Origin: a virus
Taxonomy: Duplodnaviria; Heunggongvirae; Uroviricota; Caudoviricetes
Direction: 5' to 3' (one strand)
Virus record (IMG/VR): IMGVR_UViG_2778261570_000027
DNA: 24,489 nt
Positions 1 to 12,154 of the stretch are shown here, in pieces. Position numbers and translations under genes: made by a program. The notes beneath the pieces are model-generated. The model saw nothing but the letters and a program-made list of their open reading frames with translations, did no database searches and was not told the origin of the DNA. Every line of letters begins with the position of its first letter. The first letter of the stretch is position 1.

Positions 1-1053
1 TTACGGGGTAATGCCAACCGCTGCCGCCACTTTGTCGCCACTTGGCAGCGTTGCCAGAGGATTGAAACGGAGCGCCGTTTCTAGATGATCCGGTGCCAGA
101 TGTGCGTAACGCATAGTCATTTTTATATCGTGGTGTCCGAGAATTTTTTGTAAGGCCAGAATGTTTCCACCCGACATCATGAAGTGCGCCGCAAACGTAT
201 GGCGCAGAACGTGTGTGAGTTGACCGCGAGGGAGCACGATAGACGTTTTTTCCATCACGGATAAAAATTGAAAATAGCAGTCTGTGAAGAAATTGAACCC
301 ATCAAGCGCCATGATCTCTTCGTAAAGCTCTTTACTGATAGGGATGCTTCTGTTTTTCTTCCCCTTCGTTCTGACAAAGGTAATTCGGTATTTGGTCACC
401 TGTGAGCGGGTAAGATTTACGGCTTCACGCCAGCGTGCGCCTGTGCTTAAGCATATCTTAACTACCAGTGCCAGAATTGGGTCCTGACGTTTGCAATCAG
501 CCAGCAATTCAACAATCTGCTCATGGGTAAGCCATGCCATCTCTTTTTCTGCGATGGTGAATTTTCGCATGTTCTCCAGTGGGTTCGGATACGACCATTC
601 GCCCAGACGGGATAGTTCGCTAAAAACACTACTTAGATAGCTTTGCTCCAGGTTAATGGTGACCGGGCTTGCTCCTTTCTTCCATTTCTCGCTGAAGTAG
701 ATCTCGCCTGTCAGGCGTTTATCTCGATAGTGGGCAAACATTTTAGAGGTGAGATCGGTTGCAAGAGGATTGCCCAGAGCGTCAACCATCAACAGCAATT
801 TGTCATAGACATGCTGCCCAGCTGTCAGAGATTTACCATGTAGTTTGAACCATAGCTCAACCACGTCTTTCAGTGTTCGACGATCCACTGATTCACCCAG
901 CCAGGGCTTTGCTTCGGTTTCTTCCATCGTGTGGCGCTCAAAAGCCAGTGCTTCGCCTTTGGTGGCGAATTGTTTACGCACACGACGCCCACTTCGTCCG
1001 GCGGGGTAACATTCGCAAAGCCATTTCCCTGTGGTTAGTTTTCGTACTGCCAT
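1..1053 (-). CDS. int: P2/186-family tyrosine integrase (complete, 350 aa; stop codon is the first 3 nt of the window)
   Basis: Full ORF with tyrosine-recombinase catalytic signature in order (GARWREA ... HVLRHTFA ... MRYAHL = R, H-x-x-R, Y). Sits at the prophage end next to the repressor module, as in P2/186. Confidence 0.9.
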   Translation of the reverse strand: MAVRKLTTGKWLCECYPAGRSGRRVRKQFATKGEALAFERHTMEETEAKPWLGESVDRRTLKDVVELWFKLHGKSLTAGQHVYDKLLLMVDALGNPLATDLTSKMFAHYRDKRLTGEIYFSEKWKKGASPVTINLEQSYLSSVFSELSRLGEWSYPNPLENMRKFTIAEKEMAWLTHEQIVELLADCKRQDPILALVVKICLSTGARWREAVNLTRSQVTKYRITFVRTKGKKNRSIPISKELYEEIMALDGFNFFTDCYFQFLSVMEKTSIVLPRGQLTHVLRHTFAAHFMMSGGNILALQKILGHHDIKMTMRYAHLAPDHLETALRFNPLATLPSGDKVAAAVGITP

Positions 1054-1135: not shown

Positions 1136-2812
1136 CTAAGCAACATGTAGTTCATCGTTGGCGGAAGTGGCTGCTTTGCGCTCCTGCTCAATAGCTAGAG
1201 ACTCTCTATATTCTTTCGCCTCTGCAAACATTGTCCAGTGGGCGTTGATGTTCATGTCTTCAATAACTGATTTGATTTCTTTTAAATTTACGTTAAAAAA
1301 CTCTTTTCGTGAGTTAATTTTATTGACCTGCTTTTCGTTGAAAACTTTATGCAGATGGTTTTCTAATGATGGTGCATCATCACTATAAATCATCGCATGA
1401 ACATCGAACGAAAAAGGAACACTAGCATCTCCGAGTTCACGAACACGATCAAGTGGTTCAAGGCGGCGTGTCATTCCAATTTTATATACATCTTCGCCAA
1501 ATGAACCAATATTACTAATGATATAGACGTGGCCTGATCTGGTTTGTTGAGCCATAGAAATAGCTCGTTGATTTTTAGCTTCAGCTTCTTCATATTTTAA
1601 CTGTAGTTCAGCTATTTTTTGCTCTAAAGCTAAGCGTTGTTCTTCATTTGCAAGCATAAGTTCTTTCGTTGCTTTATTTATAGCTTGCTGAATAGCTTTT
1701 TCTTCTTTTTCAGCTTCTTTTATCGCTTTTTCATATTCTCTACGAGCTCTTTCCTCTTCACGAAGCTGTTCTTTAATCCTTCTTTGCTCTTCTTTTTCTT
1801 CGAGCATAATTTCATTAACTGCTACACCCCATTTTAGCTCGTTGAGTCTTGCCTGAAGATAGATGTCACTTATTTTTGCGGACCTAAAGGCAGAGCCATT
1901 GTAATTTACTAGTTGAAATGCATCTTTTATTTCTTGGGAAAGTTTTCCAAAATTGTTGTGTTTGACTTTTGATAAAATACTGTCAACTCTTCCATTGAAG
2001 GCATCCAAAACAAAGTTTATGGCAGTATTACGCCTGTTTTGCTCAACATAATCACACGAAGCAGCTTTATTAGTTTTTATTAATGATTTGGTTAACTCTC
2101 TGGCTTTTTGTAATTCCTTGCCTGCATCTGTAAATTCATAATTTTCTGCCAGCTCATCAAGTACACTACGGTTAGGGATGATCCATTCATCACCATAACC
2201 TTCAATTTTATTTTTCATTGATTTTGCAACTGCTTCATATTTTTCTGCAAACTCTTTAGCTTCATATGCTGAACCAGCAATCTCCTTTGCTCTTTCTTCT
2301 GCATCAGAAATAATTTTTACTGCATTGTCATTAGCATTTGAGATTAGCTCATTTGCTTTATTATTAGCATTATCAAGACGTTCTTTGGCTTTCAGGCGTG
2401 CATCGCGAGCGTCTTTGGTGATTGCTATAGCTTCGCTATTAGCGTTGCTTATTGTCATCTGAGCTTGATAATTTGCTTCGTTTACTGTTTTAGCCGCCTT
2501 AATTTGGGCTTCATCTATTTTTTGCTTGGCTATTGAGTCCGCATTTTTTATCTTATTCTCTGCATCCATTACTGCGCTGTGCAATTCTTCGTATTGCCAC
2601 AATGGTGCTGCTCGCCCTTCAAGCTCTGATAATTCTCGTACGGTCTGTGCTAGTTTTTCTTGATTTTCAATCAGTTGGTTAGAAAGGGCTATGTTGTTAG
2701 CTGTCAGGTTATCTATAGCCGCTTTGTGTTTTTTACTTTGTTTAAATAATATTACAGCTAGAACAGGGGCGAGAAATGCTAATAAGAGTATAACGATGGC
2801 AAATGAATTCAT
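1136..2812 (-). CDS. Cargo protein (558 aa): N-terminal TM helix, long coiled-coil, DUF4041-like middle region, C-terminal T5orf172/Mug113 (GIY-YIG-like) domain; candidate anti-phage defence protein
   Basis: Long ORF with an SD-like AAGGA upstream of the ATG (minus strand) and only 20 nt after the cI stop. Markedly AT-rich versus flanking int and cI. Hydrophobic aa 4-23 (SFAIVILLLAFLAPVLAVILF), then an Ala/Lys/Glu-rich heptad-like region. The C-terminal ~95 aa (GHVYIISNIGSFGEDVYKIGMTRRLEPLDRVRELGDASVPFSFDVHAMIYS..., plus-strand nt ~1250-1534) resemble the T5orf172 fold as I remember it. Confidence 0.7.
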   Translation of the reverse strand: MNSFAIVILLLAFLAPVLAVILFKQSKKHKAAIDNLTANNIALSNQLIENQEKLAQTVRELSELEGRAAPLWQYEELHSAVMDAENKIKNADSIAKQKIDEAQIKAAKTVNEANYQAQMTISNANSEAIAITKDARDARLKAKERLDNANNKANELISNANDNAVKIISDAEERAKEIAGSAYEAKEFAEKYEAVAKSMKNKIEGYGDEWIIPNRSVLDELAENYEFTDAGKELQKARELTKSLIKTNKAASCDYVEQNRRNTAINFVLDAFNGRVDSILSKVKHNNFGKLSQEIKDAFQLVNYNGSAFRSAKISDIYLQARLNELKWGVAVNEIMLEEKEEQRRIKEQLREEERARREYEKAIKEAEKEEKAIQQAINKATKELMLANEEQRLALEQKIAELQLKYEEAEAKNQRAISMAQQTRSGHVYIISNIGSFGEDVYKIGMTRRLEPLDRVRELGDASVPFSFDVHAMIYSDDAPSLENHLHKVFNEKQVNKINSRKEFFNVNLKEIKSVIEDMNINAHWTMFAEAKEYRESLAIEQERKAATSANDELHVA

Positions 2813-2832: not shown

Positions 2833-3429
2833 TTAATTCGAGACTATTGTACTTCTTATACAAGCAACCACTTCAATATCAGAAAATGCACATTCAAAGC
2901 TATTCTCTGCTGTTGTAATTTTAATCATTCCTTTAGGAAGCCTTGTGATTTTTCGAATGGAATAGGTTCCGTCGATATTGATTAACCAGTTTCCATCAAG
3001 TACTTCAGAAAATTTTTGATCACAAATGTATGTGACGAGTCCATCCTGAACAACAATTGGTGATGAAAGGTTTGCAGGAAGAAATGATGAATCGAAGACA
3101 TATGAACCGTCTTCAATCATTTTGCCTGCGGCAAGGCGAAACTTAACAAGCTCTTCTGTAGCTGCTGTCAGCGAGCTTTGCTTAAGGCCTTGTCCGGTAG
3201 TTAACCATTTGAGGGAGGTTCCTGTTTCAAGAGCACATTGGATTATCCAGTCAGCAGGAAATGTATCCCGCAAATACCTGTTCGCTAGTGTGCTTTTTGA
3301 TACTTCCAAGTGATCAGCTAAAGCCTGTCGTGTCGTAAAGCCATAGGCTTCGACTAATCGCTCAATCGCAGCCTTACCACCTTTATTGGGATTTATTTTG
3401 ATCTCACTTGGGTACTTTGATGTTGACAT
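2833..3429 (-). CDS. cI: 186 CI-like immunity repressor (198 aa)
   Basis: Divergent from apl/cII across a short switch region. Size matches 186 CI (~192 aa) rather than P2 C (99 aa). N-terminal DNA-binding-like region (GFTTRQALADHLEVSKSTLANR). Confidence 0.75.
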   Translation of the reverse strand: MSTSKYPSEIKINPNKGGKAAIERLVEAYGFTTRQALADHLEVSKSTLANRYLRDTFPADWIIQCALETGTSLKWLTTGQGLKQSSLTAATEELVKFRLAAGKMIEDGSYVFDSSFLPANLSSPIVVQDGLVTYICDQKFSEVLDGNWLINIDGTYSIRKITRLPKGMIKITTAENSFECAFSDIEVVACIRSTIVSN

Positions 3430-5579: not shown

Positions 5580-6433
5580 GCACCATCCTGAAATGGGCGG
5601 GAAATAAAACCGCCATTATGCCAGAACTGAAAAAATACCTTCCTGCTGGCCCGCGACTGGTTGAACCTTTCGCGGGTTCCTGTGCTGTGATGATGGAAAC
5701 GGATTATCCCAGCTATCTGGTTGCGGATATTAATCCTGATTTAATCAACCTCTATAAAAAGGTTGCCGCTGATTGTGAATCGTTTATATCTCGCGCCAGA
5801 GTTTTATTTGAGATCGCAAACAGGGAGGTGGCTTATTACAACATAAGGCAGGAGTTTAACTGCTCAACTGAAATTACTGATTTCATGAAAGCGGTATATT
5901 TCCTGTATCTCAATCGTCACGGTTACCGTGGTTTATGTCGCTATAACAAGAGCGGGCATTTCAACATTCCCTACGGTAATTATAAAAATCCGTATTTCCC
6001 TGAAAAAGAACTTCGCACATTTGCAGAAAAAGCCCAGCGAGCAACGTTTATCTGCGCCAGCTTTGATGAAACGCTGGCGATGTTGAAGGCGGGAGATGTG
6101 GTGTATTGCGATCCGCCATATGACGGTACGTTTTCCGGCTATCACACTGATGGTTTCACTGAAGATGACCAGTATCACCTGGCATCCGTTCTTGAACATC
6201 GGTCATCAGAAGGACATCCGGTCATTGTTTCTAACAGTGACACATCCCTGATCCGTTCGCTGTATCGCAATTTTACTCACCACTATATCAAGGTAAAACG
6301 CAGCATCGGTGTGGCAGCTGGCGAGGGTAAATCAGCAACAGAAATCATTGCTGTTTCCGGGCCGCGCTGCTGGATGGGATTTGATTATTCGCGTGGCGTG
6401 GATAGTTCTGCCGTGTACGGAGTACGTGCATGA
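5576..6433 (+). CDS. dam: Dam-family DNA N6-adenine methyltransferase (285 aa), orphan (no cognate nuclease seen)
   Basis: Strong resemblance to E. coli Dam as I recall it: [42 protein letters not shown] and the DPPY catalytic motif ([10 protein letters not shown]). ATGA overlaps with both neighbours. Confidence 0.88.
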
Positions 6434-8844
6434 GTCATGCCGATATGAACAACTGCTGCGGCTTTAACGAGGCTGCCGCAGCATTCTCATGGAACAGCCC
6501 GAAAAAGGCCATTAACCCTTATCTGGACCCGGCGGAAGTTGCGCCGGTTTCTACGCTTTCAAACCTGATCACTCTGTACGCTGCCGATAACGAGCAGGAA
6601 CAGTTGCGCCGCGAGGCACTGAGTGATCAGGTCTGGGAGCGTTATTTCTTTAATGAATCACGTGATCCTGTCCAGCGCGAAATGGAGCAGGATAAGCTCA
6701 TTAGCCGGGCAAAGCTGGCGCATGAGCAGCAGCGTTTTAATTCAGACATGGTCATTCTGGCGGACGTCAACGCCCAGCCTTCCCATATCAGCAAGCCGCT
6801 GATGCAACGTATTGAATACTTCAGCAGCCTGGGCAGGCCAAAGGCTTATTCCCGCTATTTACGTGAGACGATTAAGCCATGTCTGGAACGACTGGAGCAT
6901 GTACGCGACAGTCAGCTATCTGCATCTTTTCGCTTTATGGCAAGCCATGAAGGGCTGGACGGCCTGCTGATCCTGCCTGAAATGAGTCAGGATCAGGTGA
7001 AACGCCTGTCCACCCTGGTAGCTGCGCATATGAGTATGTGCCTTGATGCAGCTTGTGGTGATTTGTATGCCACCGATGACGTTAAGCCAGAAGAAATCCG
7101 CAAGACATGGGAAAAGGTGGCAGCGGAAACCCTGCGTCTGGATGTCATCCCACCTGCGTTTGAGCAACTCCGTCGGAAAAGAAACCGCCGTAAACCCGTG
7201 CCGTATGAACTCATTCCGGGTTCGCTGGCGCGTATGTTGTGCGCCGACTGGTGGTATCGGAAATTATGGAAGATGCGTTGCGAATGGCGGGAAGAGCAGT
7301 TGCGCGCTGTTTGCCTGGTCAGCAAAAAAGCATCTCCTTATGTCAGCTATGAAGCCGTGATGCATAAACGTGAGCAGCGCCGTAAGTCGCTGGAGTTTTT
7401 CCGTTCTCATGAACTGGTGAACGAAGACGGCGACACGCTGGACATGGAGGATGTGGTAAACGCCAGCAGCAGCAACCCTGCGCATCGCCGCAATGAGATG
7501 ATGGCCTGTGTTAAAGGTCTGGAGCTTATCGCGGAAATGCGCGGTGACTGCGCCGTTTTCTACACTATCACCTGTCCGTCGCGTTTCCATTCCACGCTAA
7601 ATAACGGCAGACCAAACCCGACCTGGACAAACGCGACGGTAAGACAAAGCAGCGATTATCTGGTCGGCATGTTTGCTGCATTTCGTAAGGCGATGCACAA
7701 AGCCGGGTTGCGCTGGTATGGCGTGCGGGTGGCTGAGCCGCATCATGATGGCACAGTTCACTGGCACCTGTTGTGTTTCATGCGCAAAAAAGACCGCCGT
7801 GCCATCACTGCATTACTGCGTAAGTTTGCCATCCGTGAAGACCGCGAGGAGCTGGGCAATAACACTGGGCCGCGCTTTAAGTCTGAGTTGATTAACCCGC
7901 GCAAAGGAACGCCGACAAGCTACATCGCGAAATATATCAGTAAGAACATTGACGGTCGTGGTCTGGCTGGCGAGATCAGCAAGGAAACGGGTAAATCTCT
8001 GCGTGATAACGCTGAATACGTGAATGCCTGGGCGTCTCTGCATCGTGTTCAGCAATTCCGCTTCTTTGGTATTCCGGGGCGTCAGGCTTACCGTGAACTT
8101 CGCTTGCTGGCTGGTCAGGCGGCAAGGCAACAGGGTGACAAAAAAGCAGGTGCGCCGGTACTGGATAACCCGCGTCTTGATGCCATTCTGGCTGCTGCTG
8201 ATGCTGGTTGTTTTGCCACCTACATCATGAAGCAGGGCGGCGTACTGGTTCCCCGTAAATATCACCTCATCAGAACCGCTTATGAAATCAACGAAGAGCC
8301 GACCGCCTATGGCGATCACGGCATTCGTATTTATGGCATCTGGTCACCCATTGCAGAGGGCAAGATCTGCACTCATGCAGTGAAGTGGAAAATGGTTCGT
8401 AAAGCCGTTGACGTTCAGGAGGCGGCAGCCGACCAGGGCGCTTGCGCCCCTTGGACTCGTGGCAATAACTGTCCCCTTGCTGAAAATTTGTACCAACAAG
8501 GGAAAGACAAATCAGCTGATGGGGATACCAGAACGGATATCACCCGCATGGATGACAAGGAATTGCACGATTACCTGCACAGTATGAACAAAAAAGAGCG
8601 TCGGGAACTGGCTGCAAGGTTACGCCTGGTGAAACCGAAACGGCGTAGAGACTACAAACAGCGAATTACAGATCATCAGCGACAGCAGCTCGTCTATGAA
8701 CTGAAGTCCAGAGGATTTGATGGCAGCGAGAAAGAGGTCGATTTACTCCTTCGCGGCGGCAGCATTCCGTCAGGAGCAGGCCTGCGTATTTTCTATCGGA
8801 ACCAGCGTTTGCAGGAAGATGATAAGTGGCGGAACCTGTATTAA
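6430..8844 (+). CDS. A: P2/186 gpA-type rolling-circle replication initiation endonuclease (804 aa)
   Basis: Very large last gene of the early operon, in the position and size range of P2 gene A (761 aa). ATG overlaps the dam stop (ATGA). Contains a region reminiscent of the RCR metal-binding motif (HWHLLCF). Confidence 0.8.
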
Positions 8845-8936
8845 TTACGCGGGTTAACAATTCGTGCTCTTAATAATACCAGGTATATCAGGCTGATGAA
8901 CGTAAAAAAACGTTTTACATCAGTAAGATTATTATA

Positions 8937-8956
8937 TACTGTAAATATAAACAGTG
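8937..8956 (+). promoter_or_regulatory. LexA (SOS) box TACTGTAAATATAAACAGTG
   Basis: CTGT-N8-ACAG core at 8939-8954 with an AT-rich spacer, matching the consensus TACTGTATATATATACAGTA. Located ~45 nt upstream of the next gene in an AT-rich promoter-like region. Confidence 0.6.
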
Positions 8957-8997
8957 CTTATATATACAGTATTGCTTGTGGTGTCATAGGAGGAAAG

Positions 8998-9186
8998 ATG
9001 CAGGACTATTTTTTGGAGTCTTTGAAGCTCCAGCGCATTGATTTTTTTCTTAAGCTTGTAGCGGCTAGTGAGTGTAGTGATGAAGAGAAGGGGCTGGCCC
9101 TGCAGTGGGTTTCTGAACTGACAGATGAACTCATGGCAAAAATCAGAACCCACGAATACAACCGCTCAATGGATGTCATCAGCTGA
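8998..9186 (+). CDS. Small SOS-operon protein (62 aa); possibly the N-terminal part of a Tum-like antirepressor
   Basis: ATG 8998 with a strong SD (GGAGGAAAG) directly upstream and downstream of the LexA box. The longer ORF-track start (8896) would run through the LexA box and lacks an SD. Confidence 0.45.
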   Translation: MQDYFLESLKLQRIDFFLKLVAASECSDEEKGLALQWVSELTDELMAKIRTHEYNRSMDVIS

Positions 9187-9196
9187 GGTGACTTTT

Positions 9197-9430
9197 ATGC
9201 GCATTGAAATAATGATCGATAAAGAGCAGAAGATTAGCCAGTCTACCCTGGACGCCCTTGAATCCGAGCTTTACCGCAATCTGCGCCCCCTGTATCCCAA
9301 AACGGTAATTCGCATTCGCAAAGGTAGCTCTAACGGTGTGGAACTGACCGGACTGCAACTGGACGAAGAAAGGAAGCAAGTGATGAAAATTATGCAGAAG
9401 GTGTGGGAAGACGACAGCTGGCTGCATTAA
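9197..9430 (+). CDS. DinI-family protein (77 aa)
   Basis: MRIEIMIDKEQ... aligns by eye with E. coli DinI (MRIEVTIAKT...), including a Trp-containing acidic motif (WEDDSW) near the C-terminus. ATG 9197 lies 10 nt after the previous stop and is under the LexA box. Confidence 0.7.
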   Translation: MRIEIMIDKEQKISQSTLDALESELYRNLRPLYPKTVIRIRKGSSNGVELTGLQLDEERKQVMKIMQKVWEDDSWLH

Positions 9431-9717
9431 GAAACGTTGCCCCCAAGAGGATTCATTCTGATGGGGGACTATTTTGGGCAACGAGTGAAACGAGGCGTTA
9501 GGTGGACGGCCATTTTGATAAGTGATCGTCCGCTTTTTGTTCTGAGTTCAAGCGATGGATTTAACACACTGGTTGAAGCAGAAGTATCTAAGTTCAATTT
9601 ATATTATTTGAAGGGCACTGGTCTGATGTAGTACGATTTTTGCCGGAGATGGCATGTTCTATATTGATCTCATCCATATAATGATTGGTATTATTAGCTT
9701 AGTTTAAAGAGGATTGA

Positions 9718-11295
9718 ATGGATATCAACTATGTTGTTTCAAAAATGGGGTTCGTAGATGATCTTATTAATGCAGGTTCATTTGATTCTGCCTATAAAAA
9801 TGTAAAGGATATTCTTAACGGTACCGATGAGATAAATACAATCAAAGAAAATAGAATAATTATATTATCTAATTTGGCCGGAAATCTTATTGATATCGGA
9901 AGTTTTAGTAATGTAAAAAATATAGCGGAGGAAGGCTTAAATATCTTTATAAACAATAAAAATGAATTTCTGACTATAATGAAAGAATCCTTATATTACT
10001 ATAACTTGGCAAATGGAATGAGCGCAGTTCTTGATTTTAATCCTAATGACAATGCAGATATTGATAGTTTCATTAAGCTGAATGATGTAAAAAATAATTA
10101 CTGGAAAGCGTTTAAACTTTCACAAGAAGATGGATGGGTGCCCCCTGATTTAATAGTTAATCTAGCTAATGTATTAAAAAAACAATATCGTATATCTGAA
10201 TCAATGGATTATTATGAACAAGCAATATCTATTGATAACTCAATTCCTCAGGCGTGGGTAAACAGATCTGAGGCATTAGAATTGCTTAATGAATTATCTA
10301 CAACATATACATATAAAATGATTAAAGAAGTTATTCGAGGTTATGAGTGTGCAATAAAGTCAGGGAAATGTTTTCCTTCATGGAAGGTTGCTCTTCAAAG
10401 AAAAATAAAGTACAACGAAAGTATATTGAGTGAATCATGTGTATATGGCATAGAGGATATAAGTACAGATGAAAGGCTCACGCAGGAGGAGTATGATACT
10501 TTATCAAACTACCAGAGGTTTTGTATAGATAATAATCTAATGTTGTCTGATCATTCGCTATATTGCAATTGTTATGCGTCATCTAAAGATAATATAACTA
10601 TTGCTACCACCGAGGAAGGTGTGTTTGGTGATTTTATAGTGCCAATGGAAATGGTGTTAAATAGACTTAAAGCTGAGTATTCCTTAGCACGAAAAATGTT
10701 TTTTGAATATAAGGTTGATAGTGAGTTTTTTGATGAGGATTCGGAGGTATGTTATTCTGAATTGTATAATGGAGAAATATTGTATGAAAATGTTGAGAAG
10801 TTAAGGGTTGCATTTAGAGCTTGCTTTGGTATCTTGGATAAAATAGCAGTTGCTCTGTGTCAATTATTTGATTTAAAACCAGATAGAGGACATATATACT
10901 TTCATAACTTCTGGCGGATTAGTGATGAAAAAAGAAAGCTTAAAATAAACAAAATAAATAATAAAGGATTGCTGGGTTTGTTTAGTATTGCTATGGATTT
11001 GAATGATAAAAATGGTGAGCTTGCTTTTTTTAAAGAATGGAGGAATGATTTAGAACATAAACTGTTAGTTATTCACGAGAAAGACATGTTAGTTGATTTA
11101 TATAATTCTTATGGGTTTTTTGATGAGGTGAGGTTTATTGAGAAAGAAAAGTTTGAGAAACAGCTCTTACAACTCATGAAAATTGTGAGATCAGCCGTTA
11201 TTCTTTTTGTGTTTACCATACGTATAGAGGGGAAAAAAAGTATTCCTAAAGATATGTTGACCATTAAAAATACCATCGAGAGAAAAGTATTGTAG
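9718..11295 (+). CDS. Cargo protein (525 aa) with TPR-like N-terminal region and C-terminal Rx4H HEPN-type motif; candidate abortive-infection or defence RNase
   Basis: Uninterrupted 1.58-kb ORF with SD AAAGAGGA (9706-9713) and a perfect TATAAT at 9677-9682. Strikingly AT-rich versus the flanking phage genes. R-N-D-L-E-H at aa 442-447 (nt 11041-11058) fits the HEPN Rx4-6H motif. Sits between gene A/SOS operon and cos, the P2 tin/old position. Confidence 0.7.
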   Translation: MDINYVVSKMGFVDDLINAGSFDSAYKNVKDILNGTDEINTIKENRIIILSNLAGNLIDIGSFSNVKNIAEEGLNIFINNKNEFLTIMKESLYYYNLANGMSAVLDFNPNDNADIDSFIKLNDVKNNYWKAFKLSQEDGWVPPDLIVNLANVLKKQYRISESMDYYEQAISIDNSIPQAWVNRSEALELLNELSTTYTYKMIKEVIRGYECAIKSGKCFPSWKVALQRKIKYNESILSESCVYGIEDISTDERLTQEEYDTLSNYQRFCIDNNLMLSDHSLYCNCYASSKDNITIATTEEGVFGDFIVPMEMVLNRLKAEYSLARKMFFEYKVDSEFFDEDSEVCYSELYNGEILYENVEKLRVAFRACFGILDKIAVALCQLFDLKPDRGHIYFHNFWRISDEKRKLKINKINNKGLLGLFSIAMDLNDKNGELAFFKEWRNDLEHKLLVIHEKDMLVDLYNSYGFFDEVRFIEKEKFEKQLLQLMKIVRSAVILFVFTIRIEGKKSIPKDMLTIKNTIERKVL

Positions 11296-11302
11296 TATAT
11301 TT

Positions 11303-11335
11303 TCATCGAGCGATGAAACGGTCTGTTTTTCTTTA
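11303..11335 (+). terminator. Weak candidate terminator after the 525-aa gene (short hairpin TTCATC-gagc-GATGAA followed by a T-rich tract)
   Basis: Seen by eye only: AT-rich 6-bp stem, then GTCTGTTTTTCTTT. Confidence 0.3.
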
Positions 11336-11617
11336 TAGTTTTGTCATAAAAAAGAGATTTCCTGCTTAAAATTTGGCTATTACAGAGCAACTATGTATGT
11401 TCCTCGCTCACAGTAGAGCTTCATCTTTGTAAGTCTGTATGTTTCGTTTTTCAAGTGGTCATTCAGATACGGACTTTCACTTCTCTTAGACAGTGCATGA
11501 CTATGCTGCATGAAATCGCATGATCGTTTAAGGATCGTTTTTGCTAAGGCTCGCCAGAACTAGCGGGCTTTTACGTAGAACATGCAGGTGCATGAAAACC
11601 ACTACATAAAGCGGGCA

Positions 11618-11636
11618 GGCGTGGCGGGGATACGAG
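11618..11636. other. Candidate cos cohesive-end core (GGCGTGGCGGGGATACGAG)
   Basis: The G-rich 13-mer GGCGTGGCGGGGA matches my recollection of the P2/186 cohesive-end start (GGCG[A/T]GGCGGGGAAAGCA...). It lies in the only long non-coding stretch, between the accessory region and portal gene Q, where cos is expected. Confidence 0.45.
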
Positions 11637-11815
11637 CGCGCGTAACGGGGCGAAAAAGTAATAATCCCGCGTATTGGAGAGATTGATTTGAAGTTTTCGG
11701 GATCGTGTTGCAATATATTGGCACACATTAAATGATGTTGATTTCATTGACTTAATGTGGAAATGGAACTGTGAAACAACATACGTCAGCGATGTTACTT
11801 TCAAAAGGATAGACA

Positions 11816-12109
11816 ATGAAAACCATATACAACTATGACTTTCAATACTTACGTAAAGGGGATACGCGACCTCTTGATGATGGAGAGATTGTAAGATGTT
11901 CTTCGGAAGACAATCCACTCCTGATGCTTCCGAATGTTGGGGATTATGTCGACATTACCAACAATAAAGACCGTGAGTCGTTTGGTGGGAAAGTGAAATC
12001 AAGGTTATTCAGATATACTCGAGTAAGTGAAGACCATGTTATTTGCAACATCAATATTGTTGTTGAAGAGGTTGAAGACTCGGTATGGGGCACACTTGTT
12101 AAAGAGTAA
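11816..12109 (+). CDS. Hypothetical 97-aa moron protein between cos and Q
   Basis: ATG 11816 with SD AAAGGA 5-6 nt upstream, followed immediately by a strong hairpin terminator. Lower GC than the late genes. No domain recognised. Confidence 0.5.
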   Translation: MKTIYNYDFQYLRKGDTRPLDDGEIVRCSSEDNPLLMLPNVGDYVDITNNKDRESFGGKVKSRLFRYTRVSEDHVICNINIVVEEVEDSVWGTLVKE

Positions 12110-12111
12110 AC

Positions 12112-12137
12112 AAAGCGCCTGCAGTAGCAGGCGCTTT
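12112..12137. terminator. Bidirectional rho-independent terminator (AAAGCGCCTGC-agta-GCAGGCGCTTT)
   Basis: Perfect 11-bp inverted repeat with a 4-nt loop and T-rich flanks on both strands. Lies between the convergent 97-aa ORF (+) and Q (-). Confidence 0.7.
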
Positions 12138-12154
12138 CTGAGCCTAATCTATAT

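Follow-up and report, generated by a model that had tools for sequence, protein, structure and literature searches.

A tumA–tumB operon under predicted LexA control, probably the SOS-induction module of a Fels-2-type prophage, and its colicin-like double operator

The question raised by this locus is whether two small tandem genes that stand behind a LexA box, immediately 3' of the replication gene gpA, form the switch by which a prophage leaves lysogeny after DNA damage, and whether the two together correspond to the antirepressor Tum of phage 186, as the preliminary description of the sequence had proposed. The window, i.e., the whole analysed stretch of 24,489 nucleotides, covers the left-hand two-thirds of a prophage of the P2/186-like group (Peduoviridae) and of the Fels-2 type (Felsduovirus, 186-like); over its 24.5 kb, the identity to Escherichia phage vB_EcoM-813R9 and to a Klebsiella phage family is 96–97.5%. 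The integrase gene (1–1053, minus strand) is followed by a cargo gene of 558 aa (1136..2812, minus strand), the gene of a 198-aa CI repressor (2833–3429, minus strand; domains Phage_CI_repr and Phage_CI_C), the genes for CII, Fil, DUF5347, and a Dam methylase, and replication gene A (gpA; 6430–8844, plus strand; Pfam Phage_GPA, E 1.4e-127); then come the tum region, directly after gpA, an AT-rich cargo gene, and the portal, terminase, and capsid genes. This is the genomic position of tum in 186, as had been recognised from the outset; the operon stands directly 3' of gpA, in a prophage with a 186-type CI. Among the 35 related loci, 30 likewise have a gpA match that ends no more than about 520 nt upstream of the tumA homologue.

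We consider it very probable that the element is the SOS-induction operon of this Fels-2-type prophage, composed of a LexA-repressed promoter, the antirepressor gene tumA, and tumB. The support comes from sequence features, homologies, conservation across related loci, and an allele that is nearly identical and has been tested by experiment. The module itself is already known as the DNA-damage switch of Fels-2/186-type prophages, of an experimentally characterised kind; what is added here is modest, namely, a double operator of colicin type, a DinI partner that is dispensable, and a TumA whose conservation is decoupled from the divergence of CI.

Promoter and predicted LexA operator

The only CTGT-N8-ACAG of the 24.5-kb window is the 20-mer TACTGTAAATATAAACAGTG (8937–8956), which contains LexA box 1, the 16-mer CTGTAAATATAAACAG (8939..8954, plus strand). 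The box was judged by consensus mismatches with shuffled controls and by comparative conservation. It agrees with the 20-mer LexA consensus TACTGTATATATATACAGTA at 17 of 20 positions, and a match with at most three mismatches appears in none of 100 dinucleotide-preserving shuffles, in keeping with the near-consensus LexA box first noticed here. For the comparison, 35 species-level loci were retrieved with an alignment of six TumA-family sequences; in 32 of them CTG-N10-CAG stands 5' of the tumA homologue, and box 1 is kept across loci even though its internal spacer sequence and the downstream leader vary. Of the other three, L006 lies at a contig end, L033 differs by a single base, and L036 is decayed.

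The promoter of the operon, the putative equivalent of p95 in 186, has the −35 hexamer TTTACA (8914..8919, plus strand) and, after a spacer of 17 nt, the −10 hexamer TACTGT (8937..8942, plus strand), which makes up the first six bases of the LexA 20-mer. TACTGT is assigned as the −10 by analogy with the 186 record, where the −10 of p95 and the start of the LexA site coincide; the annotated p95 layout (TTCACA, 18 nt, TACTGT) is matched by that of the window, with the LexA box over the −10. TTTACA or a close variant is found 17–18 nt 5' of TACTGT in most of the 35 loci. At the sequence level the SOS box overlaps the promoter, and repression by LexA is predicted. A generic promoter scan did not call the tum promoter, since its −10 matches at only three of six positions.

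The −35 hexamer also falls within the 3' arm of an imperfect hairpin, which RNA folding places after the gpA stop codon (8892..8924, plus strand; −14 kcal/mol, z −4.2, none of 200 shuffles equally stable). This hairpin has no classical U-run and may serve to insulate or terminate the early transcript; similar palindromes precede the LexA boxes of Gifsy prophages (Lemire 2011, PMC3121763). An Rfam scan of 8700–9800 returned only chance matches to miRNA models, far under the gathering score.

A single LexA box had been described at first. That box is present, and a second LexA-like site, not noted in that description, lies directly downstream of it: box 2, GTGCTTATATATACAG (8954..8969, plus strand), has one base, G8954, in common with box 1. 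Its left half is weak (GTGC, not CTGT) and its right half, ATACAGT, perfect; of 34 related loci that have box 1, 24 keep this right half in the same register. Box 1 without box 2 is seen in 186, in PsP3, and in a Pantoea/Erwinia subgroup. With two 16-bp LexA sites that overlap by one base pair, directly 3' of the −35, the tum operator is, as far as its sequence tells, a double overlapping LexA box of the colicin type.

Searched against plasmids, the 101-bp promoter region matches 474 records, mostly small mobilizable Col-type plasmids; the matches cover positions 8931–8977 of the window at 82–88% identity and are gap-free over about 40–49 nt. The two plasmid matches that were inspected (operators at 1471–1519 of L039 and 1501–1537 of L040) sit directly 5' of genes for a colicin-like pore former and for a klebicin-type tRNase bacteriocin, and box 2 of Fels-2 is identical at 16 of 16 positions to box 2 of a Klebsiella plasmid that encodes a tRNase bacteriocin of klebicin type. 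Colicin and klebicin promoters share with the tum promoter the operator architecture of two 16-bp sites with one base in common, but the genes under their control encode toxins of Col plasmids and not a phage antirepressor; the likeness may stem either from common descent or from convergence on the LexA consensus. Colicin double operators are described as binding two LexA dimers, with very tight repression, in a passage of PMC2994835 that cites Lu and Chak (1996), and by analogy we infer that LexA occupies both boxes of the tum promoter. Our search of the searchable literature found no description of a double LexA operator at a tum promoter; earlier publication is possible.

The two cistrons and the Tum protein of 186

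The first gene, tumA (8998..9186, plus strand; ATG at 8998, TGA ending at 9186), encodes the 62-aa putative antirepressor and has a Shine-Dalgarno sequence, AGGAGG (8988..8993, plus strand), 4 nt before its ATG; AGGAGG or GGAGGG is conserved ahead of the ATG in related loci. The second, tumB (9197..9430, plus strand; ATG at 9197), encodes a 77-aa protein of the DinI family. Both genes stand where the preliminary description had placed two small tandem genes of these lengths.

TumA belongs to phrog_698 (E 3.6e-38), with no Pfam family and no PADLOC match, and BLASTP gives no alignment of it with either 186 Tum or PsP3 TumA; profiles were therefore needed. A phmmer search of 1.84 billion representative proteins yields 66 TumA-family clusters at E ≤ 0.001, most of them of about 50–90 aa, and a family HMM was built from 32 diverse members and the query. 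In hmmsearch this HMM matches residues 5–48 of 186 Tum with 35.9 bits (E 1.4e-9), against 8.4 bits for the best of 4000 shuffled Tum/TumA sequences used as a control, and hhalign pairs residues 3–45 of the TumA family with residues 3–45 of Tum (94.9% probability, E 4.6e-8). By these two matches ORF1 represents the N-terminal half of Tum, TumA being its homologue at the level of profile comparison. Membership of TumA in the family of PsP3 TumA is not supported by the same methods (HMM 4.6 bits, hhalign 8%); only the short motif C-x6-LAL-x-(L/W)(I/V) lines up. Among phage records, a TumA homologue is encoded in 66, and the fused N-terminal half of the 186 type in 38. The AlphaFold model of TumA is a two-helix hairpin (H2–23 and H28–61, pLDDT 87); Foldseek against the PDB retrieves generic helical hairpins, none at E ≤ 0.001, so that the fold says nothing about function.

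For TumB, the relation to 186 Tum is visible in pairwise comparison. It matches the Pfam family DinI (PF06183) over profile positions 1–63 of 63 (81.3 bits against a cut-off of 24.2, E 6.6e-23), in agreement with the DinI-like character initially ascribed to the second gene; it is 41% identical to residues 71–145 of 186 Tum (E 3e-24), and it aligns to positions 71–148 of phrog_189, a Tum-length profile of 151 positions. These alignments indicate homology to the C-terminal half of Tum. The Fels-2 orthologue of TumB is annotated as similar to PsP3 TumB. The alignment with 186 Tum that had been suggested as a check is, then, positive for ORF2, and for ORF1 negative in BLASTP and positive with profiles.

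The proposal of a split Tum holds in the sense that ORF1 resembles the N-terminal and ORF2 the C-terminal half of the 186 protein, whose length is indeed 146 aa. It is not a fresh possibility, because the arrangement is already annotated in PsP3 and tum is described as split in both Fels-2 and PsP3 (Lemire et al., 2011, PMC3121763).

Downstream of tumB, a stem-loop at 9502–9533 followed by TTTTTGTT (T-run, 9534–9541; whole element 9502..9541, plus strand) folds with −20.3 kcal/mol (z −2.5; 1 of 200 shuffles equally stable) and is likely the terminator of the tum operon ahead of a cargo gene of 29–32% GC. The terminator scan does not list it because its loop exceeds 8 nt.

Experimental evidence on function comes from the DuoHS prophage of E. 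coli HS. Over the promoter and both genes its DNA is about 97% identical to that of the window, with both LexA boxes kept; its 62-aa gene ECHS_RS04495 (“tum”), which adjoins the DinI-like ECHS_RS04500, encodes a protein identical to TumA at 61 of 62 residues. The “tum” deleted in frame in DuoHS is this very gene (PMC12055606 supplement), and the Δtum and lexA(Ind-) mutations each abolish mitomycin C-induced lysis and virion formation (PMC12055606). The predicted SOS inducibility has thus been demonstrated experimentally for a nearly identical allele.

These data bear on the possibility that TumB, not TumA, is the functional effector, or that the operon is a moron that modulates the SOS response of the host and plays no part in prophage induction. 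Of the two products TumB alone has a curated family assignment, the 186 tum gene as a whole carries the database label “RecA filament binding protein DinI”, and ORF1 is annotated as hypothetical nearly everywhere; against this, E. coli HS loses induction when just the 62-aa gene is deleted in frame, the antirepressor activity in PsP3 is attributed to the upstream gene (in a personal communication quoted in PMC3121763), and non-polar deletions of dinI in Gifsy prophages leave induction unaffected (PMC3121763). The distribution of the genes speaks in the same direction. A DinI match follows tumA in 19 of the 35 loci (in two of them partial) and is absent in the other 16, which keep tumA and the LexA box; the DinI partner is dispensable, and its absence from these loci fits TumA as the essential part. 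Both versions of this alternative are very unlikely. Together with the phenotype of the tumA deletion in E. coli HS, the loci lacking DinI argue for TumA as the essential inducer and TumB as an accessory.

Even less probable is that tumA and tumB are joined by programmed frameshifting or stop-codon readthrough into an active 186-like Tum of about 140 aa. The gene has been described in the literature as “split by a stop codon” (PMC3121763), 62 and 77 aa add up to nearly the length of Tum, and the TumB frame is open from at least position 9125, overlapping the end of tumA. TumB, however, has its own Shine-Dalgarno sequence (GAGGTG) and ATG, and it is missing altogether from many loci. Moreover, the spacer between the tumA stop codon and the tumB ATG measures 9, 10, 11, or 12 nt depending on the locus, so that all three frame relations occur, and a frame relation that is not conserved makes recoding unlikely. 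There is also no conserved slippery motif or structure at the junction: a terminator-like hairpin there (9175–9192) is stable only in the window, Fels-2, L004, and L014, and was dropped as a functional element for lack of conservation in relatives.

The least credible alternative, that the first gene is a 96-aa ORF from an ATG at 8896, transcribed from elsewhere and with the LexA box inside its coding region, has in its favour that 8896..9186 (plus strand) is the longest ORF in the ORF listing and that several database entries are of such length, but it is contradicted by an extension that starts, without a Shine-Dalgarno sequence, upstream of the conserved −35, −10, and LexA boxes, by an upstream leader that varies among loci in length and sequence, by diverse family members that begin at M-x-D-(F/L/Y), in line with residue 1 of the 62-aa form, and by the strong AGGAGG 4 nt before the ATG at 8998.

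The CI repressor and the proposed switch

The presumed target of TumA, the CI repressor of the window, consists of the 186 CI HTH and CI_C domains only and has no peptidase domain, which is consistent with induction by an antirepressor and not by repressor cleavage. In the lysogen, LexA bound to the double overlapping operator, with box 1 over the −10 and box 2 directly downstream, would keep the tumA–tumB operon off. Upon DNA damage, activated RecA would promote self-cleavage of LexA, and the TTTACA-17-TACTGT promoter would fire. TumA would then be made, bind the 186-type CI, which lacks a self-cleavage domain, and stop it from binding its operators; with CI blocked, the prophage would enter lytic growth. 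TumB would be co-transcribed and, judging from its family membership, most likely tunes RecA-filament and SOS activity, not being itself the inducer.

Biochemical data on CI binding exist for 186 Tum (Shearwin 1998, as cited in PMC3121763). TumA of the present phage presumably contacts its CI directly as well; the pairing is assumed, since the window CI is only 32% identical to 186 CI and only 55% identical to the CI of DuoHS. TumA itself is 98–100% identical in prophages (L004 and E. coli HS) whose CI has this 55% identity. Across 23 loci, TumA identity does not rise with CI identity, the Spearman correlations being −0.10 with the identity of the CI N-terminal domain and of −0.18 with that of the C-terminal domain; the mean CI identity over these loci is 63% for the N-terminal domain and 40% for the C-terminal domain. 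These comparisons suggest that TumA recognises the conserved N-terminal domain of CI and that it may act across immunity types.

One may go further and view TumA of the Fels-2 group as a broad-specificity antirepressor directed against the N-terminal DNA-binding domain of diverged CIs of the 186 type, a tentative reading that we regard as possible and somewhat doubtful. Were it true, SOS induction of one prophage could lead to cross-induction of heteroimmune relatives; the double LexA operator of colicin type, which 186 and PsP3 lack, would raise the damage threshold for this decision, and could reflect convergence or exchange with Col plasmids. The double SOS box and the decoupling of TumA from CI may also help in modelling induction thresholds and cross-talk between co-resident P2-like prophages.

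Known relatives, prevalence, and neighbouring genes

The locus is essentially the same as those of the Salmonella prophage Fels-2 and of DuoHS, which likewise have two overlapping LexA boxes and lie behind gpA. Promoter and both genes are 97.8% identical in DNA to the Fels-2 region STM2728/STM2726.1, and TumA is 98% identical to STM2728. As to differences, DuoHS has the diverged CI considered above, and Fels-2 has a downstream orf97-like gene where the window has a gene encoding TPR and HEPN_LA2681 domains.

The p95–tum region of 186 is similar in its position after gene A, in the LexA box over a TACTGT −10, and in the type of CI that is targeted, and the two halves of 186 Tum are homologous to TumA and TumB, respectively. 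It differs in that Tum is a single fused polypeptide, from whose gene internal starts also yield the DinI-like part alone, in the single LexA box, and in an N-terminal half whose similarity to TumA is seen only with profiles. PsP3 has the two-cistron arrangement, its tumA being annotated as the counterpart of the 5' part and its tumB as that of the 3' part of 186 tum; the tumA entry of its record reads “similar to 5' end 186 tum; UV induction of prophage”. Its TumA, however, is not significantly similar to that of the window, it has a single LexA box, and its CI gene is longer (861 nt, about 286 aa); the arrangement in the two phages is analogous. More distant are the dinI–antirepressor–irsA operons of Gifsy prophages (GfoA/GftA), which are also LexA-controlled and also combine a DinI homologue with a small antirepressor that acts on a non-cleavable repressor (PMC3121763); these prophages are lambdoid, dinI precedes the antirepressor gene, the reverse of the order seen here, and neither their antirepressors nor their repressors are related to those of the window.

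At least 80% of the segment 8845–9470 is found in 1078 of 5426 complete E. coli genomes, about a fifth, and prophages of this class are very common in E. coli, Salmonella, and Klebsiella. The element is of interest as what decides whether such a prophage wakes after DNA damage, e.g., upon treatment with quinolones or mitomycin. With the mechanism established for Fels-2, PsP3, 186, and the E. coli HS prophage, what the present analysis offers is correct annotation, in which a 62-aa “hypothetical protein” becomes tumA.

Existing annotation of the first gene is uneven. The longest ORF call has 96 aa, and many database entries have 84–101 aa, because gene callers choose an ATG farther upstream, ahead of promoter and LexA boxes; in some sources the 62-aa protein is called “levan regulatory protein”. 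The long entries as well as this name look like annotation artefacts.

The window also contains two cargo genes. Between the tum operon and portal gene Q lies a variable slot, which holds an orf97-like gene in Fels-2 and 186, and a P-loop NTPase or HNH endonuclease gene in other E. coli prophages. In the window it is filled by a gene (9718..11295, plus strand) for a 525-aa protein with TPR and LA2681-type HEPN domains (PF18733, E 1.8e-38), which sits in an island of 29–32% GC within a phage backbone of about 51% GC. PADLOC matches no system here, apart from a weak TPR match; the gene is probably defence cargo, set off from the SOS operon by the terminator-like hairpin between them. From this gene to portal gene Q (11300..12150) there are only short ORFs, e.g., one of 97 aa at 11816..12109, with no Pfam or PADLOC match. 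At the other end, the 558-aa gene between the integrase and cI genes (1136..2812, minus strand) encodes a PD-Lambda-1 anti-phage defence protein (PADLOC PDLC03976, E 2.4e-120) with the Pfam domains DUF4041 and T5orf172/MUG113.
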